Of a DNA stretch of 64,000 nt, positions 3,791 through 58,304 are shown piece by piece. The translations under genes were made by a program, and so were the position numbers. The stretch's first letter is position 1, and each line of letters opens with the position of its first letter. The notes beneath the pieces are model-generated. The model was not told where the DNA came from. It saw nothing but the letters and a program-made list of their open reading frames with translations, and did no database searches. The DNA is from Octopus vulgaris (lineage: Eukaryota). Location of the stretch: the NCBI GenBank assembly GCA_951406725.2, contig OX597825.1:77314001-77378000 (forward strand), given 5' to 3'.

Positions 3791-4043
3791 GAAGACATAT
3801 ATAGATTTGTGTGTATATGTGTGTGTATGAATGTATATATTTATTTATGAAAGAGGGTATATGCACTTTTATCCCCTCTACTTTATATTTGCACATATAT
3901 GTAGGTGTATATATATGTATAAATATGTGTGTGTGTGTGCGCGTGTGTGTGTGCGCGTGTGTGTGCGCGTGTGTGTGCGCTCGCACCTGTGTGCGTGTGT
4001 ATGTATGTTTGTATGCATACATGTGTGTATTTATGTGAGTATA

Positions 4044-4472
4044 TACTCTTTACTCTTCTGCTTGTTTCAGTTTCTTGACTACGGCTGTGCTAGAGCACCC
4101 CTTAAAGGGATTTAGTCGAAGAAATCTACCCCAGGACTTATTCTTTGAAAGCCTAGTACTTATTCTATAGGTCTCTTTTGCCGAACCATCAAGTTACTGG
4201 GACGTAAACGAACCAGTATCGGTTGTCAAGCGATGGTGGTGGGGGACAAACAGACACAAAGAGACATAGATGAAGTTATATATATATATATATATATACA
4301 TATATGTATATATGTATACAACGGGCTTCTTTCAATTTCCCTCTACTAAATCCACTCACAAAGCTTTGGCCAGCCCGAAACTATAGTAGAAGAAACTTGC
4401 CCAAGATACCACGCAGTGGGACCGAACCTGGATCCATGTGGTTGGTAAGCAAGCTTCTTACCACACAGCCAC
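4044..4472 (-). mobile_element. tRNA-derived SINE family A with internal microsatellite
   Basis: Near full-length match to the 10671-11085 copy; internal (TA)n at 4278-4318. Confidence 0.9.
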
Positions 4473-7827: not shown

Positions 7828-8368
7828 CCTTTACGATCTGAGTTCAAATTTCACCAAGGTCGACTTTGCCTTTCATCCTTTCGGGGGTCAATGAATTAAG
7901 TACCTATTTCTTTATTAGCCACAAGGGGCTAAACAGAGAGGGGACAAACAAGGGCACACATAGGTATTAAGTCGATTACATCGAACCCAATGTGTAACTG
8001 GTACTTATTTAATCGACCCCGAAAGGACGAAAGGCAAAGTCGACCTCGGCGGAATTTGAACTCAAAACGTAGCGACAGACGAAATACCTATTTCTTTACT
8101 ACTCACAAGGGGCTAAACACAGAGGGGACAAACAAGGTCAGACAAACGGATTAAGTCGATTACATCGAACTCAGTGCGTAACTGGTACTTATTTAATCGA
8201 CCCCGAAAGGATTAAAGGCAAAGTCGACCTCGGCGGAATTTGAACTCAGAACGTCGCGGCAGACGAAATACTTCTAAATTAAGTACCATTTGCGTACTAG
8301 GATCGATCTAATCGACTGATCCCCTCACCAAAAAATTCGGGCCTTGACCTAGAGTAGAAAAGAATACG
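7828..8368 (+). mobile_element. 5'-truncated Meta-domain SINE (tail type A) interrupted by a nested insertion
   Basis: Core gttcaaatttcaccaaggtcgactttgcctttcatcctttcgggggtc, continuing after 8287. Flanked by direct repeat CCCACACTG at 7819-7827 and 8369-8377. Confidence 0.85.
7905..8276 (-). mobile_element. Nested head-to-tail dimer of a ~184-bp Meta-SINE unit (tail type B)
   Basis: Units at 7905-8088 and 8089-8271. 11-bp TSD AATTAAGTACC at 7894-7904 and 8277-8287. Confidence 0.9.
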
Positions 8369-9035
8369 CCCACACTGACCGATTCCTTGCATCCATGGAT
8401 ACTACCAGCAAAACCTCAGCGTGCACATCGTTTTCAACTCAATAGAGAGCGTTGCACATGTTCAGACTATCACATGACACCCCATACAAAACGTCACTGC
8501 CTGATTAGGGTGCAATCTGGTCTTTAGCAGACGACCGTAGGGTAGAACTAGAAAAATATGATTACAGGGTCACACATTGTGGTTTGGCTGGCAAATGTTC
8601 GCCCACAAACGACTCAAGGCTATGAAACAGCAATGTCAACAACAAAACCAAAATAAATATTTGTTTATTTGAAGAAAAGTCAAGTATTTTGTATAAGAAA
8701 AAATTATTGGATTAAGATAATGGGATTATCATAATCCAGTTACAAATCTATTGTTAGGAACAACTTAAGATATTTAACAATTATAACGAAGACCTGGATA
8801 CGCCTGATTATATTTACTACAAGCATACATATACACAAACACACGTATTTATGCAGACATAATAGTATATATGTGTGTGTGTGTGAATATATAGAATATA
8901 TGCTTACCCGCCATTTCAAGGTTAAAACGATGCAAGGAAACACACTGTGACCAGCGGTGTATAACATCGGATACTCTGACACTCTGGTTGATACAGTGAT
9001 ACATATGCATGCAGGTATATATATATATATATATA

Positions 9036-9439
9036 TACTCTTTTTTACTCTTTTACTCAGTCATTTGACTGCGGCCATGCTGGAGCACCGCCTTTAGTCG
9101 AGCAAATCGACACCAGTACTTATTCTTTGTAAGCCCAGTATTTATTCTATCGGTTTCTTTTGCCGAACCGCCAAGTGACGGGAACGTAAACACACCAGCA
9201 TCGGTTGTCAAGCAATGCTAGGGGACAAACACACACACACAAACACACACATACATATATATATATACATATATACGACAGGCTTCTTTCAGTTTCCATC
9301 TACCAAATCCACTCACAAGGCATTGGTCGGCCCGGGGCTATAGCAGAAGACACTTGCCCAAGTTGCCACGCAGTGGGACTGAACCCGGAACCATGTGGTT
9401 GGTTAGCAAGCTACTTACCACTCAGCCACTCCTGCGCCT
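9036..9439 (-). mobile_element. tRNA-derived SINE family A, full length
   Basis: Minus-strand head aggcgcaggagTGGCTGAGTGGtaag...GGTTCAGTCCC (A and B boxes), internal (TA)/(TG) repeat, tail with aaagagt repeats. Confidence 0.92.
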
Positions 9440-9961: not shown

Positions 9962-10670
9962 GAAGAGTGTGTGAGCTCAAGCCATCTAGTTGATTCACAT
10001 TATTCTGAGTCACTTTAGAATGGTCAAATTGCAGCCGATAGGACTTCGTGACGAAACATTAGCAACAGTTTATTTCTTAGTTCTATGACCCACCCGTTGA
10101 CGGGCCATGTCATATTCGACCCGCTTCAGGTTGAAGATTGCCCTCCCTGCTCATGACATTGGTGTTATTGCTGCTTAGCCCTAAGTTAGTCTATGGACCA
10201 ATGTGTTTCAACCCTGAATATCCCGATTGTATAATTCTGTTTTATGTATCCTTCATCAATATACTCTTCTATATTTAAAATAGTTTATTGTTATTTGAAG
10301 TAAATGTGTCTGCTCTTTCTCACTAGTCGATATACTACACAAAAGCTCTCCCATTTGCTACTATTAATCCGCTTTAAGAAAGTGTTGTGTCAGATAATAT
10401 CAGTTTCTAATTAAAATAAATGAACATCATTCACTCATATCACGTGATGTCTCGGTACTTTTGGCAGGAAATGTTTTATCGTTTTGTATCTTGTGTTTTG
10501 GTAGTTTAAGTATTTTTTCTAAATATTCAACAGAAAGCTGAGCTAAACTCGTTGCTTTAGTTCCTAATCTTATGGGCCAATGCCCTGACAGAGAAAACCT
10601 TTGCATATAGATGTTCCACTCGTCACCATCCCTTGATATTCTACATATATAGATGCGTCTTATTTAATAT

Positions 10671-11085
10671 ACTCTTTTACTCTTTTACTTGTTTCAGTCA
10701 TTTGACTGCGGCCATGCTGCAGCACCGCCTTTAGTCGAGAAAATCGACCCCGGGACTTATTCTTTGTAAGCCCAGTACTTATTCTATCGGTCTCTTTTTT
10801 GCCGAACCGCTAAGTGACGGGGACGTAAACACACCAGCATCGGTTGTCAAACAATGCTAGGAGGACAAACACAGACACACAAACACACACATACACACAC
10901 ACATATATATATACCTATATACGACAGGCTTCTTTCAGTTTCCGTCTACCAAATCCACTCACAAGGCTTTGGTTGGCCCGGGGCTATAGCAGAAGACACT
11001 TGCCCAAGATGCCACGCAGTGGGACTGAACCCAGAACCATGTGGTTGGTTAGCAAGCTACTTACCACACAGCCACTCCTGCGCCT
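10671..11085 (-). mobile_element. tRNA-derived SINE family A, full length
   Basis: Nearly identical to the 9036-9439 copy. Confidence 0.93.
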
Positions 11086-11504
11086 ATTATCTCTTGTCAT
11101 GTTTAGAAACACAAGGCTGCCTGTAATTTCAAGAACCTTTTATCTTTTTATATCATGTTAGCCATGCGAATAAGTTAAACCACCATCGTTTATTTAGCTA
11201 CCAATGTGTAATAACTAATATGTACACACTGCCAATACGAACTGATAATGCACTATTTGTCCTGATATAATATTTCTTATGGAGTTGCTTTCTTAAAAAC
11301 GCAATAAATATCCGTGAAAGATTAAAATTGATCCCAGCAGCGCCCAATGATAACGCCAGGTGCAAGACAATAAGAAATGTTATCTCAGGACAAATACTGC
11401 AACAACTCGCGTATCAAAGGTGTATGTACATTAAATATGATACATAGATATCTGTTTTAATGAAATACTTCATCAATTGCGTATAACTCTATACGTTTAA
11501 AATA

Positions 11505-12220: not shown

Positions 12221-12894
12221 GAATTATTTTATTTTGCACTACAGTTTTTTTTTTCTTTTTGTTCCACATTGAGTCAGCCAATAATAAATATCTGAAACAA
12301 GACGGCAGACTCAACCGTCGTTCTGCAAATAAATTAACTGTCCCTATCTGGCCAGACTTAAACGAAAATCTACGCAATCGCCCTCTGAATGCCGTTTTTA
12401 GTGATACGCTTATTTTGTAACACAACAAACTGGAGATAATCAGTGATCAACTTTGAAATCATTTGGTGTTATCAGCAACAAACTTCAGCTTTTGACAGAC
12501 AATTTGGCATCGGATCTTCTCTCTCTCTTGTATTTTTATTTATTTATTCATTGATTATCTTGCGGGTTTTGGTTTTTCTTTTTTTTTTTTTTCAAATGTT
12601 ATTTTAAACAAATCATTTGTAGACACGAAAATAAAAAGAAACTTTATTTGTTTGCTTAGCATTCAACACTAACAGACCGTTCGGAATGAACAAAGCATAC
12701 ACACACATAACACACGTAAGTGCGTGTACGCACACATACCTCACACATACATACACAAGCACATATGCATATATACACGCATATACAGACAAACTATTTA
12801 TCACACATGCATATATACAGCTATACATACGTACATACATGCGGATATACATACCCACACATATTATGTATATAATTATATATTTTATTATTTT

Positions 12895-13268
12895 ATTCTT
12901 TTACTTGTTTCAGTCATTTGACAACAGCCATGCTGGAGCACTGCCTTTAGTCGAACAAATAGACCCCAGGACATATTCTTTGTAAGATTAGTACTTATTC
13001 TATCGGTCAATTTTGCAGAACCGCTAAGTTACGGGAACGAAAACACAACATCGGCGATGTTGGGGAGACAGACAAAGTCACACAAACATAGAGACACACA
13101 TACATATATATATATATACATATATATATATACATATATATAAAACGGGCTTCTTTCGGTTTCCGTTTACCAAATCCACTCACAAAGCTTTGGTGGACTC
13201 GAGGCTATAGTAGAAGACATTTGCCCAAGGTGCCATGCAAGCTACTTATCTCACAGCCACTCCTGCGC
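12895..13268 (-). mobile_element. SINE family A copy with internal deletions
   Basis: ttgtttcagtcatttgac...ctcacagccactcctgcgc. Confidence 0.88.
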
Positions 13269-15469: not shown

Positions 15470-15618
15470 AAAGTAAAAAGCTTGCTTCCACACCACATGG
15501 GTCCGGGTCCAGTCTCAGTAGATGACATTCGGCAAGTGTCTTCTACTATAGGCTTCGGTCGACCAATGCCTTGTGAGTGGATTTGGTAGATAGAAACTGA
15601 AAAAAACCCCGTCGTATA

Positions 15619-15666
<48 letters not shown>

Positions 15667-29404: not shown

Positions 29405-29424
29405 TTGTGTGTGACACAACATAT

Positions 29425-29590
29425 ATACGACGGGCTTCTTTCAGTTTCCGTCAACCATATCCACTCACAAGACTTTGGTCGGCCCAAGGCTATAGTAGAA
29501 GACACTTGCCCAAGTTGCCACGCAGTGGGACTGAACCCGGAACGATGTGGTTCGTAAGCAACCTACTTACCACACCCCCACTCCTACGCC
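29425..29590 (-). mobile_element. 5' half of SINE family A
   Basis: tacgacgggcttctttcagtttccgtc...gggactgaacccggaa...ccactcctacgcct. Confidence 0.9.
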
Positions 29591-30759
29591 TATCTACGCC
29601 TATGCCTATTTATAAAGTTTTCTTATTTTACACAGCATTTCAAAAGATGTGATTGTGAATTCAGCGTTGATGTTCTTTTTGTCGTTGTTATGGACAAACT
29701 GGTCAAAACATTCTATCAAAATCCATAGAAACATTCTTGCTTTTGTTTGGTTCTTGGTTTTTGATGTCTGGTTGGCGAGATTCACGTATATATTGTTAGG
29801 TTTTGTTTTCTCTTCACTTATGAAAGCTTTCGTACTCTATGTTAACAAAAAGCTTTTCAAAATTGTCAGTTTTCGTGTACATTCAGGTGAAAATTTAAAA
29901 CAACCAGTCATCATTCTTTGAAACAATTTGAACAATAGACATCACCAAAGTAATCCACTTTAAAAAATACAAACAATATAATCCAGAAACTAGAGCGTTG
30001 TGTAGAAATTCATGTCATAGTAAAGTCTGGAGTTTGTGAGGAAGAACAAAAAGTAGTGAGAATACCAATATCTGAAAATGGAAGTTGTGTGTTGGAGATA
30101 AAAATGTCGAAGGAGTGTCAGTGCTAGGGGATACTTTTGGCACATTCCAGATGTCGAAAAGAACTATTATAGAAAGCTGCATGTGGAATATCAATATAGA
30201 GCGAGCGAACAGTAGGCAAAATCATCAGAAGAGAACTCTCACCAAGGAAGCGTTTCGGTCTGTTAGATCCTTACATTTTAATGGAACTGAGCCCACTTAG
30301 GGCGCGACCCCTAGATGTTCTGCTGCTTTCGAAATGCTACCTTTCGAATGAATTAAACCCGAAATTGTGTGTTCTTATTTCCTTGTATTGTGGTGTATTA
30401 TTCAGGACAGCCACTTTTCACGGGAGCCATATATACCCCTAAAGGACCTTGGTACATTTGAAGGGTGTCGCATACTAGCTGTGTTATATTACGGAAATTA
30501 ATGAATGAAACTTAAAGCTGTTTCACAAGGTTTACTGGAAGCAAAGATGTGTTCTTGGTGGGACCATGGCCACAAAATGCGGAGAACGATTGCTGTAGGT
30601 AATGCACAAAAACTGAGCTGAGGAAAAAATCTCAGACTATCGTAGTTATAAGTTAAGGTTCGCTGCATCAGCTATAAAATCGACAAAATTTCAAGCTGTA
30701 AAAATTATGAAATAGAGTAAACAAATAACAAAAAATAGAATTTTAATAATACTTTTAAA

Positions 30760-32736: not shown

Positions 32737-32993
32737 GGTGGTGAGCTGGCAGAACTGTTAGCACTTTGGGTGAAATACTTAACGGTATTTCACCTGTCGC
32801 TACGTTCTGTGTTCAAATTCCGCCGAGGCCGACTTTGCCTTTCATCCTTTCGGGGTCGATAAATTAAGTACCAGTTACGCACTGGGGTCGATATAATCGA
32901 CTTAATTCATTTATTTGTCCTTGTTTGACCCCTATGTGTTTACTCCCTTGTGGGTAGTAAAGAAATAGGTATTTCGTCTGTCGCTACCTTCTG
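32737..32993 (+). mobile_element. Full Meta-SINE (tail B) followed by the start of a second unit
   Basis: Head ggtggtgagctggcagaa, Meta core, tail ...gtaaagaaatag, then gtatttcgtctgtcgctac again. Confidence 0.88.
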
Positions 32994-33039
32994 CAATAAA
33001 TATACAAACATCAATATAACCAGAATTAAACGAGATAAT

Positions 33040-33248
33040 CCTTTCTACTACAGGCACAAGACCTGAAATTTGGGGAAGAGGGTCAGTCAATTACATCGAC
33101 CCCATTGTTTCACTGGTACTTATTTAATCGACTTCGAAACGGTAAAAGGCAAAGTTGACCTCGGCGGAATTTGTACCAAGAACGTAGCGACGGGCGAAAT
33201 GCCGCAAAGCATTTCGTCCAGCGGGCTAAAGATTCTGCTAGCTCGCCG
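33040..33248 (-). mobile_element. Meta-domain SINE (tail A), full length
   Basis: ctttctactacaggcacaagacc...aaaggcaaagttgacctcggcggaattt...gattctgctagctcgccg. Confidence 0.88.
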
Positions 33249-33261
33249 CATTAGATTAAAC

Positions 33262-34578: not shown

Positions 34579-35732
34579 CAGAGGTTGGACAAAATAATGG
34601 AAACACCTTAAAATTTCAGACAAATTTATTTTAATATGGAGTAGGACCGTCTTTGGAAGTAATTACCGCTTGAATTCTACGAGGTATGGACTCGTACAAA
34701 GTTTGAATTGTTTCCAGAGGAATTTTTGTCCATTCTTCAGCTAAAACAGTCTCCAGTTCTTATAGTGATGATTGTCGAGGATATCGACTTCTTACTTGTT
34801 TTTCTAAATAATATTGAGATCTGGGGACTGTGGTGGCCAGATAAAATGTTCAACTTCACTAGAATGTTCCCCGTGCCATTCAGTAACAACTTTAGCTGTG
34901 TGAATTGGTGCATTATCATCCTGAAAGATTGCGTTTCCCTACGGAAACAGTTCCGCAACCATAGGATGAATTTGATCAGATAAAATGCTTAAATAGTGTT
35001 GACTATTAATTCTGCCATGACGGGAAAACATTTCCAAGATATCGCACTCACACCACCCCAGATCATCACAGATCCTCCTTCATGCTGGAAGAAGGTAGTC
35101 TGGGTCAAATGCTTCTTTTAGCTGTCTCCACACGTATACTCAGCCGGTGGTGGGAAATAAGGTAAAGGATGACTCATCCGAGAAAATAGCATTCTTCCAC
35201 TGCTCTGGGGATTAATTCTGTAGGTTTTTACTCCACTTTAAACGCTTTACAACGATTGTTTTTGTAAGCAGTGGTTTTCTGATTGCAGCTCTCCCCTGAA
35301 ATCCGGCTTTGTGCAGCTCCCAGAGTTTTTGTGGAAACTGGGTTCTTAAGCTGGTCATTAAGCTCTGTAGTAATTTGGGGATCAGTACTTTTGTGATCCT
35401 TTCTAACAATTGGCGTAAGAGCCCGGCGGTCCCTATCTGAAAGTTTTGGTTTTCTTCTGGAGTTTTGCTTCAACGAGGAGGTTTTTGCCTCTTTCCCAAA
35501 GTCTTTCGAGACAGTACTTCTTGCTACACCAAACATTTCAGCTGTTTTTGTTGTGCTAGCGCCGGCCATACCACCACCAACACTTTGACCACTTTGAAAG
35601 TCCGATAGATCTGTCATTTTAATGAATTTTAATTACTATTTTCTTATGATATTTGAAAAGAAACAGCAATTTTAGCAAAGCATTTTAAGCAACACTAACA
35701 ACAAATCAAAAGACATTATTTTGTCCAACCCC

Positions 35733-37392: not shown

Positions 37393-37438
37393 TACTAACC
37401 TGTATGCGGTTGTATTCAATTTCTAACCCTTGCTTTAG
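37393..37438 (+). promoter_or_regulatory. Branch point and 3' splice site of exon 4a
   Basis: Perfect TACTAAC at 37393-37399, a second TTCTAAC at 37421-37427, then pyrimidine tract ccttgcttt and AG. Confidence 0.7.
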
Positions 37439-37548
37439 GAATGGCAGGACCTCAAACTAAGATGGAATCCGAAGGAATATGGTGGTGTGAATCGACTGTA
37501 CGTGCCCTCGGTGGAACTCTGGCTGCCAGACATCGTACTATACAATAA
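37439..37548 (+). CDS. nAChR: Internal exon ('exon 4a') of a nicotinic acetylcholine receptor (Cys-loop) subunit, alpha-like loop A
   Basis: ttgctttag|GAA...AAT AA|gtaagt, 110 bp, phase 0 to phase 2. Translates [36 protein letters not shown](N), the canonical WxDxxLxWNPxxYGG...[10 protein letters not shown] nAChR motif. 110 bp is the conserved size of nAChR exon 4. Confidence 0.95.
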
Positions 37549-38043
37549 GTAAGTAGTATAGCGCCTCATAGGTGTACTGCGTCATATTGACGTGTGCCAA
37601 GCAGGATATAGTTATCTGTTCACATCGTTATTTATAATATTGAATAGAGAATTGAGCCACATGAACACTTGTTGTGAAGGTAATCTTTGTTGATGTTAGC
37701 TAGTTCTAGATATATTGTAAATGTAAAGAAAAAAAGCATATAGAAAAAGTTTAACGACAATAAAAGCAACAGCTTAGCCATTTGCGTGATAGAAAGTACA
37801 TTTGATACGAACGATTTTTCTCATATATACTTAGACAAATGCGCTTATAAGACACACTACATTATATCCTATAATAATACGTCACAGCCTATTAGGGAGA
37901 ACTAGCTTCATCCGCCATTAAATACATGATACGTTACGCACTAGAGAACGCATATTCACACATGCAAATACATACAAGCACATACATATATTTACACACA
38001 GACACACAGACATATATAGATATACATACATATATGTGTCTGC

Positions 38044-38075
<32 letters not shown>

Positions 38076-38104
38076 ATATATATACATATATATACATATA
38101 TACG

Positions 38105-38152
<48 letters not shown>

Positions 38153-38513
38153 AGGCTCGCACGTGCATATTGTTCAGAGGTATGTACAAGTATATCTTCC
38201 TATACATAGGTATAAGTAAGGGAAATGTGCTGACGCACGTCAATTATGAATAATCATTATGATTATTCAGATTATAGAGAAGTGATGCGAGAGAGACAAT
38301 CAAGTATCTATTTAATTACATGCTTGCATGCAACTACGTCTATGGATTTACATATCTACAAAATACGCTCCAGAATGTGCATGCGTGAATGCATGTCTCT
38401 AAGCGTATACTTACATACATACATGCATACATATATATATATAAATACATATATGTATATATATATATATGAATGTGTATGTATGTATATATATATATAT
38501 ATATATATTTATA

Positions 38514-38546
<33 letters not shown>

Positions 38547-38555
38547 ATGTATATC

Positions 38556-38620
38556 AGGGCACATGGCCCAGTGGTTAGGGAGTTGCTTTCACTATCACAA
38601 GATCTCGGTTTCAATTCCTG
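38556..38620 (+). mobile_element. Isolated tRNA-like SINE head
   Basis: TGGCCCAGTGG (A box) and ggtttcaattcc (B box), as in the 43184 copy. Confidence 0.6.
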
Positions 38621-38713
38621 CGACACGAATATTTGATCGCTTAAACAATTCATTTGTGTGGGTCGTTCAGCAAAAGCAGGACGCTCATTCGTCGTCTTCG
38701 AGGGGAGAGTCGA

Positions 38714-38780
<67 letters not shown>

Positions 38781-40632
38781 ATGAAGTTGGAAAAACCATA
38801 ATTCAAACGAGGATTCAATACAAGTGTTAGGGAAAGTGAGTATGTAGAATGTAGATCGTAAGCTCCTGCGAGAACTCATACGTTTCCTGGACCCAGTAAT
38901 ATTAAAAACTGGGCTCAAATCAAAACAAAATCCTTCATGATCTACATCCACTAAGTTTTACATTTTTTCCTAACTGCCCTTGAAACGGATAAACTGCCCT
39001 TCTTGACTTTAGCTGAAATAAGCACTAAGCATATGTCTTTGTATGGTGTGTGTATGTGTGTGTATATATACTCACGATGTTAATTAAAGCAGTGGGATAA
39101 TAATAGGTGGATAATTATATACCTAAGATTTGTAATTATATTCATCGTTATACGTTTATTAAGAATTCTATGGCGCTTATTTTAACATTTCCCGACTTCA
39201 TTTTAAAATATAAATACAGAATCTTTAACGGAAATATAATAATGATAAAATTATGAATATTAACAGTTTAAGTCATTTTTAGAAAACGTAGTTTTACTAC
39301 GTAAGTTAGAAGAGAAATAACGCAAATGTCAGCTTATAATAAACATACTGAGAATGTATCGAGGTACATAGCATTTGAACTCCAGTGGGCGCCTGTTATA
39401 TAAGCTGTTAACGATATAACAGACAATATAGCAGGCAAACAGAGTTTTAAAAAATCTACTTGAATATTTACATTGTTCTTGTGTGAATATATATAAGAAT
39501 TAATTATATTAAAGTGATGATATATTTCATTTTACACGAGTAGCTTGATTTGATGTTGCTCTCGTCTTAGCTGAGAATGTGTACAAGTACAATTAGCTCA
39601 AGTAGATCTTTCGATAAACTCGATAGCTGCTCAGTCCGGTAGATGCCCCGGCCTAATGAGCATAAAAACTCGAGATGTATTAATTATTTTATTGTACGAT
39701 ATCTGTCTATACTAATTACGTTGGTAAATTCCGTTTCTGAACGTATAGAAATAGTAACATGCTCCGTAAAAATAGATATACACACAGGCGTAGGCATATA
39801 TATATATACATACTACATACATATACATTGATATATACATACGTATATATATATATATAACGCATGTATATATGTGTGTATATATATATGTGCGTGTTTG
39901 TGTGTGCGTATGTATATATTGATAGGTATGCATTAATGCAATAGAGTTTACCACAATTTGTTGACTCGGGTCCCGTAAGCATATTATTTCTAGACCCTTG
40001 TTATGTTAACATTTTCAACGAAGCAAAGTCAAGCGAGAATATTGTGAAACGCCACAATATAATATCTAATAGAACTACATGTTGAAATTTTGATATTTTG
40101 AATGCATTACATACACGTGTTTCGAGAGTAGATATATAAGAGAATATTTACGTCATATCTTCCTCAGTCGTAAAATTTCGAATAATTTTGTACCAATTTT
40201 CTTACTCGTGATAGGTTTATAAAATGCACTCAAATATCAATTTAACATTTGGTTTCTGTCTCTACACACGCTCGCACTCGCACGCACGTACACATACACA
40301 TATACATTATGTGTGTGCCTGTGTGTGTTTGTCTATGTATATAAAATATTAAAAGGATACACACATCTTAATAATATGTGTGTATGGGGAATATGGTATT
40401 CCTCCGTTTATTTCCCAAAGACTATCGTAACGTACCCAACAAATAATCAGTTTATTATAGGGCAGTTTCAGTGAATATTTTTCGGTTAGATGAAGATGTG
40501 CAATACAAGGTTCGTGTCAACCTGATTACCACACACAAACGTACTCACCAATCCACGTGAGTATGTGTGTGTGTATGTGCGCACGCCTATGGATGTATAT
40601 ATATATATCTATATACATACATAAATACATAC

Positions 40633-40668
<36 letters not shown>

Positions 40669-40682
40669 TTATATATATATAT

Positions 40683-40871
40683 TGGGAGAGTTTACGAAAA
40701 AAACAAAAGATGAAGACAGGTGGTGTACAAAACAAACAGATGTATTAGTATAACGCTCAGGAATAGGAAAAAGTCTTTTACGTTTCGAGCCTACGCTCTT
40801 CTACATAAAGGTACACAGTAAAAACAAGGAGAGAAACAAGGAGAGAAAAAAATGTGTGTAGTGGCTAACGA

Positions 40872-40872
<1 letters not shown>
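40683..40872 (-). mobile_element. Penelope-type pLTR fragment with minimal hammerhead-like motif (40775-40810)
   Basis: Minus strand: cttt-ATGTAGA-a-gagc-gtag-gctc-GAAA-CGTA-aaag, giving stem I, stem II and a palindromic ACGT stem III. Core positions 3 and 6 are non-canonical. Confidence 0.6.
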
Positions 40873-40906
<34 letters not shown>

Positions 40907-40908
<2 letters not shown>

Positions 40909-41227
40909 GGCTCAGTGGTTAGAGCGTCGAGCTTACGATCGTCAGGTTGTGAGCTCGAATCCCGGACCGGGCTGCGTGTTGTGTTCTCGAGCAAGGCACT
41001 TTATTTCACGTTGCTCCAGTTCACTCAGCTGTAGAAATGAGTTGCAACGTCACTGGTGCCAAGCTGTATCGACCTTTGTCTTTCCCTTGGATAACACTGG
41101 TGGCGTGGAGAGGGAGGCTGGTATGCATGGGCGACTGCTGGTCTTCCATAAACAACCTTGCCCAGACTTGTGTCTAGGAGGGTAACTTTCTAGGTGCAAT
41201 CCCATGGTCATTCATGACCGAAGGGGG

Positions 41228-41232
<5 letters not shown>
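40907..41232 (+). mobile_element. tRNA-derived SINE with CORE-like body (family D), inserted in (TA)n
   Basis: TGGCTCAGTGG A box, agctcgaatccc B box, body gagcaaggcactttatttcacgttgctccagttcactcagctgtagaaatgag. Confidence 0.85.
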
Positions 41233-41281
<49 letters not shown>

Positions 41282-42009
41282 ATACACAATATCTCACCAC
41301 CTTACAGAGTCTTCGCTCGATTCGATGCTCCAACAGCTGTGGATTCCCAGTAATCGCTGTCAGGGACTATTTTGTACTATTTTCACCAGTCGTTAGGTGG
41401 CTAAATTTGGATTGATCTAAATGAAATTAAATATCCTTATCCAGCCTTGCCTAATTGTTTGCCTCACTACTTTAACCTCTATATAAATACATAACTCACA
41501 CAGAGACATATGTCCAAAATATCTCTCCCTGTACTAACTACAGTGTCCAAGCCTTCATCACCAGAATAACAATCCACTAGAATAGTAGAACAATTTTCCA
41601 ATCGCAATAGTTTAAACAGAACATTGACAACATCGTTCAGGGAGGGCACGGAAACCGCGTTGTCTCAGCTCGTCCTACACACAGAACACTGGAAAAACTA
41701 AACATATATTTATACCTCTGAGTGTGAGTGTGTGTGTGTGCTGCGTATGTCCGTGTGTATGTGTATCTACTGTGTATATGAGTATTTATGTTAGTATATA
41801 TTTTGATACAGCCAATAGAATAGTGAAATCTATAGATGGTGAAATCTATAAGTCTGATGCTAATTTCCACCTAAGACACAATTCTTCACTTTAGATAGTA
41901 TTTCTGCATTTCTGCACTTACGTTTGCCATTTTTTTATCACTTCACATACTAACATTTCTCAATAATATTAAAGGATAATTTTCTTGATATTATTATATA
42001 TTTTTTTTC

Positions 42010-42176
42010 CGACGAGGTCGATTTTGCCGTTAATCCTTTCCAGGTCGATAAAATAATTTCCAGTCGAGGACTGGGGTTAGCATCATCGACTGGTCCCCTG
42101 CCCCCTGTCCCGCTGCCCCCCTGGCCCCCTGCCCCCCTGCCCCAAAATTTTCGGCCTTGTGCCTACAGTAGAAAAA

Positions 42177-42180
<4 letters not shown>
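42010..42180 (+). mobile_element. Meta-SINE (tail A) ending in (ATT)n
   Basis: gaggtcgattttgcc...actgggg...ggccttgtgcctacagtagaaaaa(att)n, with an internal gccccct minirepeat. Confidence 0.8.
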
Positions 42181-42228
<48 letters not shown>

Positions 42229-42352
42229 ATTACTCAGTACTTTATAATCTTAAGGCATGAATTTACTCTATGAACCGCGCGCAGCATATTGTGACATTGC
42301 TACGTATAGGGATAGGTTTTACATATTTTACTACTACTACTACTACTACTAC

Positions 42353-42419
<67 letters not shown>

Positions 42420-42469
42420 AACAACTACAACAACAACAACCACTGATGGTTTCTCATATTTACCATTCA

Positions 42470-42605
42470 TTCCCTCTAAATTTTGTGCCAAGTTCGATTT
42501 TGCCCTTCATCGTTTCGGGGTCGATAAATTAAGTACCAGTCGGTATAATCGACTATCTCATTGACTCAAATTTCAGGACCTGGGCCTATAGCAGAAAGGA
42601 TTAGT
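42470..42605 (+). mobile_element. Meta-SINE fragment (tail A)
   Basis: tcgattttgcccttcatcgtttcggggtcgataaattaagtaccagt...cctatagcagaaagga. Confidence 0.8.
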
Positions 42606-42619
42606 ATTAATATTATTGT

Positions 42620-42625
42620 TGCTGT

Positions 42626-42664
<39 letters not shown>

Positions 42665-42696
42665 CACTACCACTACTGCTGTCGCTGCTGCTGCTG

Positions 42697-42740
<44 letters not shown>

Positions 42741-42750
42741 GCTGCTGCTG

Positions 42751-42784
<34 letters not shown>

Positions 42785-42785
42785 C

Positions 42786-42818
<33 letters not shown>

Positions 42819-42835
42819 ACTACTACTACTACTGT
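42620..42835. repeat. (CTA)n/(CTG)n compound microsatellite
   Basis: Visible array. Confidence 0.95.
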
Positions 42836-43183
42836 AAAACTGCGTTTTATTTTTACCGGAGGTTAATAAATTTAGTACCAACTCAGTACCTAGAATCAAC
42901 AGCAACCTAAATCTCCAGCATACGACAATCTGTCTCCTCAAGTAGTAACCCTCACCCTTTCTAACCCTCTAATCTTCCCTTCCGGTCAAATAAGGGACCA
43001 CTCCCATTTTGTTATCAAATCCCACATTCCTTTTGCGTCTCGTTCGCGTACAGCTCTATTCTCCAATTCAGGGCCCTTGAGGCTAATGTACAAAATCTTT
43101 ATCGCAAACGTTATGCTGTCATTTCTTGCTAATGTGATATCACTATTACCATGTTCATTCACTTTACCATTATTATGAGCGAC

Positions 43184-43572
43184 GTGGAGGCGCAATGGCC
43201 CAGTGGTTAGGGCAGCGGACTCGCGGTCATAGGATCGCGGTTTCGATTCCCAGACCGGGCGTTGTGAGTGTTTATTGAGCGAAAACACCTAAAAGCTCCA
43301 CGAGGCTCCGGCAGGGGATGGTGGTGATCCCTGCTGTACTCTTTCACCACAACTTTCTCTCACTCTTTCCTCCTGTTTCTGTTGTACCTGTATTTCAAAG
43401 GGCCGGCCTTGTCACTCTCTGTGTCACGCTGAATATCCCCGAGAACTACGTTAAGGGTGCACGTGTATGTGGAGTGCTCAGCCACTTACACGTTAATTTC
43501 ACGAGCAAGCTGTTCCGTTGATTCGGATCAACCGGAACCCTCATCGTCGTAACCGACGGAGTGCTTCCATTC
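43184..43572 (+). mobile_element. Young full-length tRNA-derived SINE (family E)
   Basis: Head gtggaggcgcaaTGGCCCAGTGG...GGTTTCGATTCC; CpG-rich; perfect 12-bp TSD ATTATGAGCGAC at 43172-43183 and 43573-43584. Confidence 0.92.
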
Positions 43573-44168
43573 ATTATGAGCGACATCCTAATCGCTTGTC
43601 ACACACAACATGAACACTAACGCCATTACCGTCTCTTAGAATCCTACCACGGTCATCCTCGATACCACAACCACCATCACAAAATACCTCCCAGACGACC
43701 ACTACCAAAATCTCAACAAACCAACATCATTAGCAACTCCGACAAACAATGTGATTAATTATTTTCTGAAATCTGAATATTTGAAATCATATCTTTCGAT
43801 TATCCTCAATCAAGATCTTAAATGCTTGTCTGATATTACTTTCATGTCAACTTTACTTCTTTTCCTATAATGATTTTTTTCCCTCCAATAGTATTTATTA
43901 TATGATTCCATTGGAACAGTCCTCTACCTATTGCACTATAGGTATATAACACTTAATCAGATTTTTATTTGAAATATATTATAACATATATATGCATATA
44001 CACATGTTTATATACATGTTTTATTTATACATATATATATATATATAAATAAATGTGTCTCTCTCTCTATATATATATATAAATATATATAAATATATAA
44101 GTTTATATACATATATGTTTTATTTATACATATATATATATATATATATAATTATGTATGTATATACC

Positions 44169-44252
<84 letters not shown>

Positions 44253-44400
44253 TGTAGTACGAGCAATTATAAGTTAATAACCTCATCATAAATACTCTCC
44301 AAAAATTCAACAAAAAAATTATTATGCCTTATTTATGTATTTTTTTATTGTATTAGCATAGTACGCAAAATAATTATCAACGCGCCACTTAAACTTATAA

Positions 44401-44435
<35 letters not shown>

Positions 44436-45136
44436 CATACACATATATATATTTACTAAATTTTGTTTGTTTAGGGAGGATAAGGGTGAAAGATATTCTG
44501 TTGTTGCTTTTGATGTTGTCTCAATCTGTGAAAATATTGATTGTCTAATATTGCACAACTGCGCACCTAACGCATTGGTTCCAGTGCAGATGCATGGTTT
44601 AATTCTAATGTTGTTTTTCTCTAATGTTTCCTCCTTTTTCCCCCCTTAAAGGAGAAAAAAAATTACCCGACTGTTTGAAATAACGTATAATCTGTTGCAA
44701 CTCTTTTTTGTATCAATGTCGGCATGATTAAACAGTTCTTTTGAGAGAACATACCGTCTGTATTATGTTTGATGTTTGTTGTTGTTATGTACGAATTGTA
44801 TATGCTACCGTTAATGTAACAACATTACACACATACACACACATATATATCTATACATAAATACATATATGTGTGTATGTGTGTGTATGTATTCATATAT
44901 GTGCATGCATGTTGCATTACTTAGGCGTTTTGATTGATCTGCATGATGTATCACTACGAATCGATGACGCTAAATTGAACTGTCAAATTATTAGCCGTTA
45001 ACTTTTCAAGCCGAGAGACAATGCGGCGCGATATAAACGAATATATAATACGACTTAACTACAGACCTATGCATATAAACAGAACATTATTCGTGTGTAC
45101 ACACACGCACACACACATACACGCACACACACACAC

Positions 45137-45201
<65 letters not shown>

Positions 45202-46147
45202 AACATATATATATATACAAACATATATAAAAACATATATATATGAAATATGCACAGTTTACAACCAGAGATTAAAGTACCTTAGATCTCATACTCAAAA
45301 TCAAACGATCGGATAATCCTTGTATCAAACGAACGAGTCTCTACATATTAATTTCAGCTAGTAGTGAAATTTGTACGAGACGTTTAAGAATATGCTCTTA
45401 TGGATGTAAATATCTCTTAGAAGAGAATATTTCTACCACATTAATTTTGTCAAAATTGTTTTGAATTTTTAAAAAAAGAAATTGCTATTTGCAATGTGTA
45501 CAGCAAGACCTGAAGTGACTATTTTCTAAGTTATGCTTAACATGTGTTCTGGCAGATTCTAGCACAAATATATTAGTCACGTTTGTGTCTATTTTGCAGG
45601 AGTAACACCCCTCCATTACGACCACAGTTTGTGATTCGAGTCTTGCATAAACATATTGTCGTCATAAACTGAGTTGTTCTTCTGCGACATACTCAACAGC
45701 GATTAGCATATCTGCTTTCGAAATGCGAATTGTTATTTTTTGAAATTATTACTTATCACCAAAAATACTTCCAACGGAATCGCACAACTGGGCACTTTGA
45801 AAGTAACTTGTTTTACATAGAGTTGCGTATGTTCTTCTTTCTTTAATTGTTTAGCTTTTTAGTGCGAAGCCCCATCAGATTTACTTCATCTTACGCACAC
45901 TTGAAGTTTGTAAATTGAAATAAAATTCTATAAATACTGAGTTTAATAGAATATATTATAGCCTAAATATTGGTGGATTCCCAAAAATGATTTATATGAT
46001 TGAAGCAAATACCGTAACTTTACGTCCTCTATATAACTAAATCGCAACCGAATTCAAATATGAGTGCATATGCATACACACACACACACACACCCGCACA
46101 CATACACACACACACACACACGTACACACATATATATACATACATAT

Positions 46148-46192
<45 letters not shown>

Positions 46193-46692
46193 TGTGTGTG
46201 TGTGCATGTACTTATCCATCTATGTACATATACATGCATACATACATGCATACATATATGTATATGAATATATATATATGCATGTATGTATGTATGTATA
46301 TGTATATATATACACGCAAACACACAGACATACACAGGAAAGGCTGTGTTTATGGATACCCCCTGATGACATGTCGGAAATTCAATTACATCGAATCATG
46401 ACACATCTGTAGACATTCTCACAACACTTAGTAATCCGATGATAAATGGCATGCTGCTTTCATTGTGTTTCTTGTCAAGTCATTGTCGACCATTTGTTAA
46501 AAGTCTTTCTTTTATATATTGTCTACATAATACATAACACTGTTCTTGTTCTTTTTATTCACAGTCGAATGAATGAATGACTGAATGATCTGGTTAGACA
46601 CACGGTGTCTACGAGAATCTGTGTGATTCTATGTGTGGGTGGATGTGAGTGTGCGTATGTGTGTGTGTGTGTGTAAAGATATATATATATAC

Positions 46693-46743
<51 letters not shown>

Positions 46744-46877
46744 TATATGTATATATATATATACGTGTATATACATATATACACACATATATGTATGCAT
46801 ATATAAATATATATGTCTATATTCAGATATAATACAAATACCTATATATATATGTGTATATATATACATATACATAT

Positions 46878-46923
<46 letters not shown>

Positions 46924-48454
46924 GGATACTATATATAATGTATATATATCTATATATACATATATATATATATGTGTGTGTGTACATATATATATGCGTG
47001 TATAATCATGTATAGATCTCTTAGAGTTCTTTCATTTCTTGGTAATATCCAACATCATTCAACTCTTTACATGAAAACATAAAAGTATACCAGTGTTTCC
47101 ATAAGTACTCATAAAATATTCTTTTTATGACATATATCATTCATATCTTTTTCTCTTACTCCGTCACATCTAAGATAAAAGCTTTTCATTTTGTATATAT
47201 TTTAAGTAATATTTTTGTTGTATCGTCCTAGAAATTTTTGACTGTGTAAGATCATTGCTTATAAGCACGCAATCATTCATAAATACAAATAGACACAAAT
47301 AGACACGAACATATATACTCATATATACATAAATGCATAGACATATTACTTTTTTGTTGAAACCTTTGTCTGTTATAGTCTGGGTATAGTCTGTCTGTTA
47401 TAGTCTGGTGCATTTATCGGGTTGATTCTCGTAGATTCTCGTAGATTCTCGTAGATTCACCAGATGACTGATGACGCACCAATGAAATAATCTATGTATT
47501 ACCCTTCACAGCTTTCACGCCTTTATAAAAGCTATAGTAAATTAAATATTATAAAAAAGTTATCCATCATCTGCACATTTAACTCAGCGCGGATATATTT
47601 AATGGAGCAAGTCATATCTATTATATAGATTAAATTTACATCATAAGCTTATAAAGATACATTCTGTCAAACAATAATAATATGGGAGACAACCTTATGT
47701 GTAAATTTGAATATGGATACTCAGAGAAGTTTGAGTTTAATCTCCCCAAATTTACATAAATCTCAGTCGATGTATGGCCGGACAAGAACTGTTAAGGCTA
47801 CACTTCGATGAAGAGATCTCATGAGGGTGAAATATATCAGCAGATATCAGTGTACTCGCCAGACTTCAGCTCGTTTCTCATTTCTTTCTTACATTTGATT
47901 ATAATTAATCTTAAGTAAGAATTTCATTCGCATAGCTTTCTATTATTTTCAAGCTGTATACTTATTTTTTTCCCACTCCCTACATTTTTAACATGAACTC
48001 TTATAAAATTTAAATAAGACAATACTTATCCAATTCCATTCCCGCAAAGATTAGGCCACACACGGTGTGAGGAAATTTTTACGTGCAAAAAATTTCAAAA
48101 ACCCGGATTATACAACGAAAACTAATCTTTAGAATGGTATGTTTTCAGTTCCGCTGAATGAAAACCAACGGGTTATGCATAAATACATGCATTCATACGT
48201 GCATACACACCTATGTATGCAATTACATATATTTAGACTCTAACATACTTTCAAAGCAAAGAGTAAAAAATCAAATTCAAATTATGTGTTATCTCGAATA
48301 ATTCTTATAAATCGCATATCGGAAGTTGACACTGCACACTATTTAACTGTAAAGGGTTCATTTATATCTATCTATCTGTCTGTATGTCTATCTGTTTGTC
48401 TCTCCGTCCGTCTATTTATCTATCAGTCCATATATATATGTATGTATACATACA

Positions 48455-48555
<101 letters not shown>

Positions 48556-48699
48556 ACATATATATATATATATACCCATGCATATATATACATATACGTG
48601 TATATATATGTGCATATACATACATACAGACATACATATATGCATATATATACAAACATACAAATTCGCATTTGTTTGTGGACAAATTGAAAGCAACAA

Positions 48700-48726
48700 T
48701 TTTCTTAACTTGTGGTCTTGGTAAAG
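48700..48726 (+). promoter_or_regulatory. Weak 3' splice site of exon 4b
   Basis: Branch-like CTTAAC at 48705-48710, followed by a purine-interrupted tract ttgtggtcttggtaaAG. Confidence 0.5.
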
Positions 48727-48836
48727 GAATGGTGGGATATATGGCTGAAATGGAACCCAAGCGAGTACGCAGGTCTGAAAACCATCGAAGTTCCGGCTGC
48801 AGATATATGGACGCCAGATTTGGTCTTGTTCAACAA
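48727..48836 (+). CDS. nAChR: Second, paralogous internal exon ('exon 4b') of a nicotinic acetylcholine receptor subunit; loop A Tyr replaced by Phe
   Basis: cttggtaaag|GAA...AAC AA|gtaagt, 110 bp, same phases as exon 4a. Translates [36 protein letters not shown](N); no stops or indels. Confidence 0.92.
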
Positions 48837-48875
48837 GTAAGTTGGACGTGTGTTGCCTCTTTTTGCTGGTTATGG

Positions 48876-56805: not shown

Positions 56806-58073
56806 AATAAAATCTTTTTGAAATGAAAGTTATTTCGGATTGTGTTCTTCGACTTCGGAGTTCCATTTTCTAAAATCTAAGGCAAGATTGTCATGGTTGG
56901 AATATTTCCGATCCCAAGTCAATATGATCTGCATAAATATATAATGCTGTATGAAGGAGATATTGGAAATAAATAAAAACAAATAAGCGAACAAAATAAA
57001 TAGAAATATGAAAAAATCGTAACCTACTCGAAAAAAATAATTTTTCATATTTGACAAATATTTTCGGAATTTCTAAACTGAAAAAGCAATCCAAATGTCA
57101 ACAAGTATTCATTTTAAATATACTGTAAGATAAAAAAAATGGCGACGGATTTTTGTTAAAAGTAAACATTCCTGACAACAGAATTACATCGCTAGATCTC
57201 TCTCTGCGTGTATATGTTTGTGTGTTTGTGTGTGTGTGTGTGTGTATTTGTGTATGTGTGTATATGTGTTTAATATGTTATATATAATATTGTATATAAA
57301 TATGCATTTATACATATATACATATATTTGTAACTATGTAAATATATATGTATATATCCATATAGTGTATGCTTGCATATGCCTTAATGTATTTGTGCGT
57401 GTGTGCATGCGTGCGTGTACGTATATGTAGACATGTCAATAATTCCAAGGCAAAGAGCATTTTTGTTTGGTGAAAAGGCATTAGCTAAGACAAAATAGAA
57501 AATAACGTTATTCATCACCTGCCTTATAGAATAAAAATCTGGACGTAAATTCACCAGCTTGGCGTATATGGCCACAACGAGTGAAAGCATTTTATTAATC
57601 GATTTAAGAAGAATGTAAATATAAATTCATAAGTTCAAATACATAAATGTAATTCATAAATGTAAATATATAAATATATATATATATATAACTGGATAAT
57701 TCTCGACGGGCACATAACTCATATTTAAAAGATGAACACAACAAACCTAAGACGCAGAGGACAAAAAAAAATAAGCTTAAAACTAGTCAATACTAAAAGT
57801 TTGGTAGATATTCAAGTGAAGCGAATTTTGCGAATTAGAGGCAAAGTAAAAATCTGTTAAACGAAAATACATTGGTTAAACGCAAAGACATGAATAAAAT
57901 ATGAAAACCTGACAAAAAGTTTGAATGTAAGGAACCAAAGTTTAGTATATTTTATAGAAATAATGTGGAATTTCTATATAGGTTAACGAATAATTGTTCG
58001 CCGCAAGCAGTATTTATAGAATACATTACATTGCTATAGTGTTGTGTCCGCTATAATATCAGTAATATATTTA

Positions 58074-58304
58074 GGGCGGCGAGCTGGTAGAATCGTTAGC
58101 GCGTCGGGCGAAATGCCTAGCGGTATTTCGTCTGCTGTTACGATCTGGGTTCAAATTCCGCCGAGGTCTACTTTGCCTTTCATCATTCGAGATCGATTAA
58201 ATAAGTACCAGTTATGCACTGGTATCGATGTAATGGACTTAACCCCTCTGTCTGCCCTTCTTCATCCCCTCTATGTTTAGACCCCTGTGAGCAATAAAGA
58301 AATG
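58074..58304 (+). mobile_element. Full-length monomeric Meta-SINE (tail B)
   Basis: 19-bp TSD AATATCAGTAATATATTTA at 58055-58073 and 58305-58323; head gggcggcgagctggtagaatcgttagc. Confidence 0.93.

Follow-up and report, generated by a model that had tools for sequence, protein, structure and literature searches.

An ancient exon switch in the ligand-binding domain of a molluscan nicotinic acetylcholine receptor alpha subunit

Two tandem homologous exons, 4a and 4b, constitute an exon switch in the ligand-binding domain of a nicotinic acetylcholine receptor alpha subunit of Octopus vulgaris, and this switch is real, ancient, and selectively kept. It would consist of a choice between exons 4a and 4b in one type E alpha gene. 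Going by the sequences compared here, it is on balance probable that the two exons are mutually exclusive and that the subunit made with 4b is still of the alpha type, with its binding site retuned on both faces rather than turned off. Of the consequences considered, a retuned potency or selectivity was judged most likely, a change in assembly or in the receptor surface next, and an accessory role third.

Exon pair in the 64-kb window

The window, i.e., the whole stretch of 64 kb that was analysed, contained the following elements of the exon pair:

37395..37438, + strand: 3' splice site of exon 4a, with CTAAC at -44 and -16, 15/20 pyrimidines, and TAG
37439..37548, + strand: exon 4a, the ancestral-type alternative, residues 59-94 in Torpedo alpha numbering, with Tyr79 and Tyr93
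37549..48726, + strand: intron separating 4a from 4b, 11,178 nt, microsatellite-rich, with no receptor exon inside
48705..48726, + strand: weak 3' splice site of exon 4b, with TTAAC at -22, 12/20 pyrimidines, and an AAG acceptor
48727..48836, + strand: exon 4b, the derived alternative, with Trp61, Trp64, Thr77, Glu79, and Phe93
48837..48842, + strand: consensus 5' splice site gtaagt of 4b, equal to that of 4a at 37549-37554

Both exons comprise 110 nt, encode 36 residues plus AA, and are bounded by their own splice sites (tag and gtaagt for 4a, aag and gtaagt for 4b, which is intact). They are identical at 64/110 nt, start in phase 0, and end in phase 2, and thus form a tandem homologous pair that matches in length and phase. 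Both match positions 56-91 of Pfam Neur_chan_LBD above the curated cut-off and align with residues 59-94 of Torpedo alpha, which places the last aromatic residue at position 93, where 4a ends in VLYN and 4b in VLFN. Positions 59, 77, and 79 of the complementary face, which the initial annotation had passed over, are encoded by exon 4 as well. Motif scans, tblastn, and exact 7-mer matching with full octopus proteins detected no other exon of the receptor gene in the window, and an Rfam search of the window gave no match. At window positions 48793-48822, the 4b stretch PAADIWTPD is identical to a stretch in the AChBP/alpha1 chimera 4ZJS (PDB), which is probably a coincidence.

Apart from the exon pair, the window contained an open stretch of 134 residues and two dispersed repeat families:

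35228-35632, - strand: open stretch of 134 residues with weak helix-turn-helix Pfam matches below the cut-off
4041-4472, 9016-9439, 10660-11087, 12865-13239, 15473-15663, and 29414-29593: dispersed repeat family 1
7898-8271, 32737-33249, and 58071-58303: dispersed repeat family 2

The open stretch is presumably similar to the N-terminal end of a Tc1-type transposase. Members of both repeat families are about 200-430 nt long, 75-91% alike, and SINE- or MITE-like.

Splicing and transcripts

Four of 24 listed sequencing runs were compared with positions 48660-48874, a stretch around 4b; 14 runs were taken as RNA-like by guess, none being on record as RNA, and contigs drop rare forms. Run X6 contained one contig of 1,844 nt (depth 207.6) with exon 3, exon 4b, and exon 5 in consecutive order, in which TTNVWLRQ (exon 3) precedes 4b and the completed N, followed by ADGNYEVTL (exon 5), comes after it. 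Both joints of 4b were found in run X2 on separate short records, next to another record extending into the intron, and the 3' joint was found in run X11; run X15 was DNA-like and read through the whole stretch including the intron. The final N of VLFNN is supplied by exon 5 outside the window and was seen in contigs of three RNA-like runs. Since the joints in the RNA-like runs coincide with the splice sites of 4b, VLFNN is real, and the claim of the initial annotation that a genuine exon giving this motif lies at 48727-48836 was confirmed by an intact 110-nt exon spliced to exons 3 and 5.

Each exon is joined singly to the same flanks, as seen in contigs for 4b and in annotated isoforms for 4a (P0017, P0139). 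The contigs and the identity of the isoforms outside the exon also bear out the earlier proposal that 4a and 4b are alternatives of one gene. Frame analysis showed that the reading frame shifts if both exons or neither are used, and that 4b read after 4a runs into a stop at codon 7, so that messages carrying both exons or neither would probably be cleared by nonsense-mediated decay as a backstop against mis-splicing. Steric exclusion was ruled out because the intron of 11,178 nt is far too long. A simple BLAST of the 4-kb flanks for docking/selector pairing returned microsatellites and short matches, and no convincing pairing. The genomic read-through protein P0350 contains an a-type and then a b-type exon about 20 residues apart, i.e., in the order of the window, and the intron is short enough there that steric exclusion might act.

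Compared with the acceptor of 4a (TAG, 15/20 pyrimidines), that of 4b (AAG, 12/20) is weak. Lys, from which AAG was inferred, precedes 5/6 other b-type exons, and Lys or Gln precedes 6/43 a-type exons (Fisher p 0.0013; the count was made on unnamed genomic read-through proteins, omitting rows in which another residue precedes the exon, and rows are not independent of each other). This suggests a weak acceptor conserved on a regulated exon, and the weak AAG acceptor may be what makes 4b the regulated choice. The same acceptor, together with the location of the rest of the gene outside the window, could be taken to mean that 4b is a decaying duplicate or a part of another gene. This is highly improbable and already largely refuted by the spliced contigs and the identical flanks in isoform pairs. 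It is also opposed by the lack of a further receptor exon in the 11.2 kb that separate 4a from 4b, and by the conservation of 4b between octopus and cuttlefish (32/36 residues identical, with 60/60 and 116/120 in the flanks).

Octopus isoforms and gene identity

Residues 100-135 correspond to 4a in P0017 (Octopus vulgaris/sinensis; 36/36 identical) and to 4b in P0135 and P0137 (Octopus). Between P0017 and P0137, there are 18 differences within the exon and 0 outside, and both the 4a and the 4b form are present in O. bimaculoides. P0017 and P0135 differ in their last few residues as well (alternative C-terminal tail). Both octopus isoforms have FGSWTYDG in loop B, RYLCCPEPY in loop C, and the GEK motif before M2, and the principal-face residues Trp149, Tyr190, Cys192-Cys193, and Tyr198 are kept in both.

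Vicinal cysteines in loop C are the established, usual definition of an alpha subunit (also stated in the available text of PMC5325082). They are present in the 4b isoforms P0135, P0137, P0138, P0140, and P0003, none of which thus shows the absence of vicinal cysteines that marks a non-alpha subunit. Because these cysteines are kept, both isoforms are alpha subunits; Tyr93 of loop A, which is Tyr in 4a and Phe in 4b, is a typical but not a naming feature of alpha. The initial annotation had read 4b as turning an alpha-type loop A into a non-alpha-like one and had proposed a check of loop C. This check found the vicinal cysteines in both octopus isoforms, which also share FGSWTY in loop B, so that the 'non-alpha' wording was overstated; the direction of the inference was reasonable.

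Quick trees calculated without exon 4 place the octopus gene in a group with the type E proteins of molluscs (SH-aLRT 80, 93), with which it also shares the exon pair; on the basis of these trees, it is orthologous to the gene of nAChR type E in Aplysia. The sequences deposited for Aplysia californica as 'alpha 1' (AAL78648, NP_001191489) and 'type E' (AGI03861) contain the a exon, as in octopus 4a, and 'alpha 2' (AAL78649, NP_001191490) contains the b exon with VLFNN, as in octopus 4b. All 18 differences between Aplysia alpha2 and type E lie inside the exon. Unlike octopus 4b, the Aplysia b exon has Leu79 and no extra Trp, and the Aplysia forms were deposited under separate subunit names.

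Distribution and origin of the exon pair

Twelve molluscan clusters were examined, mostly consisting of database gene models that were taken as annotated. The a/b pair was found in 10/12 of them, the decapod and the Mya cluster having b only, and in 12 molluscan genera (Octopus, Aplysia, Biomphalaria, Pomacea, Haliotis, Patella, Gigantopelta, Ostrea, Pecten, Mizuhopecten, Argopecten, and Mytilus). As in Octopus, differences are confined to the exon in Aplysia, Biomphalaria, Pomacea, Haliotis, Patella, Ostrea, Pecten, Mizuhopecten, Argopecten, and Mytilus, and the flanks of the a and b forms are identical in Gigantopelta and in the bdelloid rotifers Rotaria and Adineta. A Tyr/Phe pair with identical flanks was present in 3/3 bdelloid clusters (from these two genera); P0070/P0196, P0206/P0202, and P0083/P0227 are such pairs at the same place, and their Phe form carries two N-glycosylation sequons. 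Among six other clusters, a pair was found in Lineus only (8 differences), and none in two Owenia, one Tubulanus, one tardigrade, and one horseshoe-crab cluster. The Lineus pair was set aside as a separate duplication, both of its exons being a-like.

The b form is present in all nine decapod proteins that span the exon, and 4b is thus not a minor form. A search for short 4a proteins, in which 136 candidates were scored, found a 4a form in Argonauta (P0235) and none in decapods; 4b may be the main coleoid form, and assemblies may have dropped minor ones. In the M2 of the decapod P0003 cluster, which lies outside the window, 5/5 gene models or genomic read-throughs have GEKITL and 5/8 full-length transcript-derived proteins have GEKIAL, a pattern that A-to-I recoding of Thr to Ala at the 2' position of the pore would produce, and that an allele might produce as well.

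An exon tree was calculated from 41 exons (16 b, 13 a, and 12 other) with 36 columns only, for which the bootstrap had not settled. All 16 b exons fell on one side of a branch (99/99), and the 13 a and 12 other exons on the other side. A duplication restricted to coleoids was rejected (p-AU 0.026); an independent duplication in rotifers was not rejected (p-AU 0.132), with a very long rotifer branch. The a exon is the ancestral type, and the trees favour a single origin of the pair in early molluscs.

Residue differences between a and b exons

Residues were compared across 10 molluscan genera and 2 rotifer genera (the panel), with exons being assigned to a or b by overall likeness and conservation being measured by protein identity. 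The a exons have Tyr93, Tyr/His79, and Val75 in 12/12 genera each, and Lys64 in 11/12. Among the b exons, Val75 is found in 1/12, Lys64 in 0/12, and Tyr/His79 in 0/12, position 79 being occupied by Glu (7), Leu (2), Gln (1), or Ser (2). Phe93 is present in 10/12 b exons (8/10 molluscan and 2/2 rotifer genera), with Tyr in Patella and Mytilus. The absence of the complementary-face residue Tyr79 is thus a more constant feature of b (12/12) than Phe93 (10/12), and since position 79 varies among b exons, no single charge effect can be universal. Outside the panel, the b exons of Arion and Bradybaena have Tyr93. The b exon of Potamilus (P0039) has Asp at position 93, so that the loop A aromatic is gone, and its loop C cysteines are kept. 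The expectation that Phe is conserved in orthologues hence held for its age and for most b exons, and failed for the genera just named.

Eight structural residues, W60, D62, W67, P81, W86, P88, V91, and L92, are invariant in 12/12 b exons, which, like the identity of octopus and cuttlefish 4b given above, is a sign of selection. Trp61 together with Trp64 was found in 4/200 unique exon-4-like 36-mers, all of them coleoid 4b; the two unusual Trp residues pointed out by the initial annotation are therefore real and rare, and are a detail of coleoids only.

The variability of b exons bears on a different explanation, according to which splice choice mainly affects how the subunit assembles or is trafficked, or else its outer surface (through partner choice, glycosylation, or access of toxins or modulators), with Phe93 being secondary. 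We consider this rather unlikely, albeit the foremost of the alternatives. It agrees with the location of most of the 18 differences outside loop A, with the mean identity among the 10 molluscan genera of 0.57 for b vs 0.76 for a, with Phe93 not being fixed, and with N-x-S/T sequons near positions 74-77 in several b exons (Pecten, Mytilus, and rotifers); furthermore, an alternative exon of Drosophila alpha4 is cited as influencing assembly in a title in the reference list of PMC2064938. Against it, octopus 4b has no N-x-S/T sequon, and Phe93 is kept in the above-mentioned molluscan and rotifer genera while neighbouring surface positions drift.

Predicted effects on the binding site

Under the preferred reading of a retuned binding site, the exon would alter both faces, because Tyr93Phe lies on the principal side and Arg77Thr and Tyr79Glu lie on the complementary side. 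Tyr93Phe removes one hydroxyl from the principal face, for which a modest loss of acetylcholine potency is predicted. Arg77Thr and Tyr79Glu are predicted to alter shape and charge of the complementary face, and these changes may in turn alter agonist or toxin selectivity and possibly partner choice. According to the available text of a review (PMC4006026), the hydroxyl of the loop A Tyr is important in acetylcholine recognition; for adult muscle sites, affinity is described as coming mainly from Tyr190, Tyr198, and Trp149, and not from Tyr93 (PMC4621750, available text). Position 79 is reported to be among the residues of the complementary face that lie no more than 5 A from docked acetylcholine in alpha9alpha10 models (available part of PMC5325082).

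Other subunits, too, have Phe instead of Tyr in loop A. The initial annotation had named insect beta1 as having VLFNN, and this is correct insofar as the beetle beta-like 1 protein P0029 has it; the same site is Phe in human beta3, an accessory subunit (available text of PMC9319688), and in Alvinella Alpo4 (PDB 8BX5), the best PDB match of 4b, which ends in WTPDIVLFN and is described in the available text of PMC10338036 as insensitive to acetylcholine. This raises the alternative already proposed by the initial annotation, namely that 4b makes an accessory or structural subunit whose principal face no longer binds acetylcholine productively, whereby one gene would give an alpha subunit and a partner. 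We regard this as unlikely. Every other principal-face residue is kept in octopus 4b, and both beta3 and Alpo4 have defects in loop C that 4b does not share: loop C of beta3 is shorter and without an equivalent of Tyr190 (PMC9319688, available text), Alpo4, described as an isolated family, has no vicinal disulfide (PMC10338036, available text), and the second domain of beetle P0029 lacks the vicinal Cys. Moreover, Phe93 is found in two arthropod alpha-type exon fragments (P0298, P0457), and 4b is the only form in the nine decapod proteins.

Heterodont clam proteins in which the b exon occurs together with a loop C without vicinal cysteines speak against retuning and fit an accessory role better. 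This combination was found in Mya, Dreissena, and the transcript-derived P0086 and P0091, and the a-type model of Mya keeps the loop C cysteines. However, the Cys-less clam sequences represent one clade, and the cysteines were also lost elsewhere, in a gene of Gigantopelta that has both exons and in a paralogue of Lingula whose exon is a-like. The Mya locus (P0071, P0077, P0225, P0277) apparently contains 3' halves in tandem, a Cys-less one and one that has the loop C cysteines; in the models, b is paired with the former and a with the latter, and the N-termini are identical at 59/62 positions.

A broader scenario, which we regard as distinctly doubtful, would place the switch before the split of molluscs and rotifers and would let one gene give a canonical alpha subunit as well as a partner that is accessory or of low affinity, with the b exon fixed to a Cys-less 3' half in heterodonts and the Phe form being the main one in coleoids. 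If true, the hard-wiring of the b exon in heterodonts would show a route from alpha to non-alpha subunits.

Relation to known systems and implications

Tandem-duplicated, mutually exclusive exons in functionally important nicotinic regions are likewise described for insects, i.e., exons 4/4' of alpha4 and exons 3a/3b and 8a/8b/8c of alpha6 (PMC2064938, available text). According to the same text, the alpha4 pair covers loop E and the Cys-loop region and exon 8 of alpha6 covers TM2. Unlike these insect exons, the molluscan pair extends from the end of loop D as far as loop A, altering a residue of the aromatic box, and no comparable exon pair was found in the arthropod relatives examined. Both isoform sequences were already in databases. 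A literature search, with subscription journals mostly outside its reach, found no description of the exon pair; older Aplysia papers may have noted variants. In the available text of the lophotrochozoan survey PMC6896357, splicing occurs in a reference title only, and the available text of PMC3874043, in which AChR-E was measured in Aplysia R15, leaves isoforms unmentioned.

The exon pair swaps an aromatic-box residue together with complementary-face contacts and has been maintained across the molluscan classes sampled (cephalopods, gastropods, and bivalves). Aplysia 'alpha1' and 'alpha2' would accordingly be forms of the same subunit, and two binding sites would be mixed whenever the type E subunit is assayed. 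Exon choice is therewith a concrete variable for expressed molluscan heteromeric receptors, and the pair may serve as a natural experiment on the role of the loop A Tyr.
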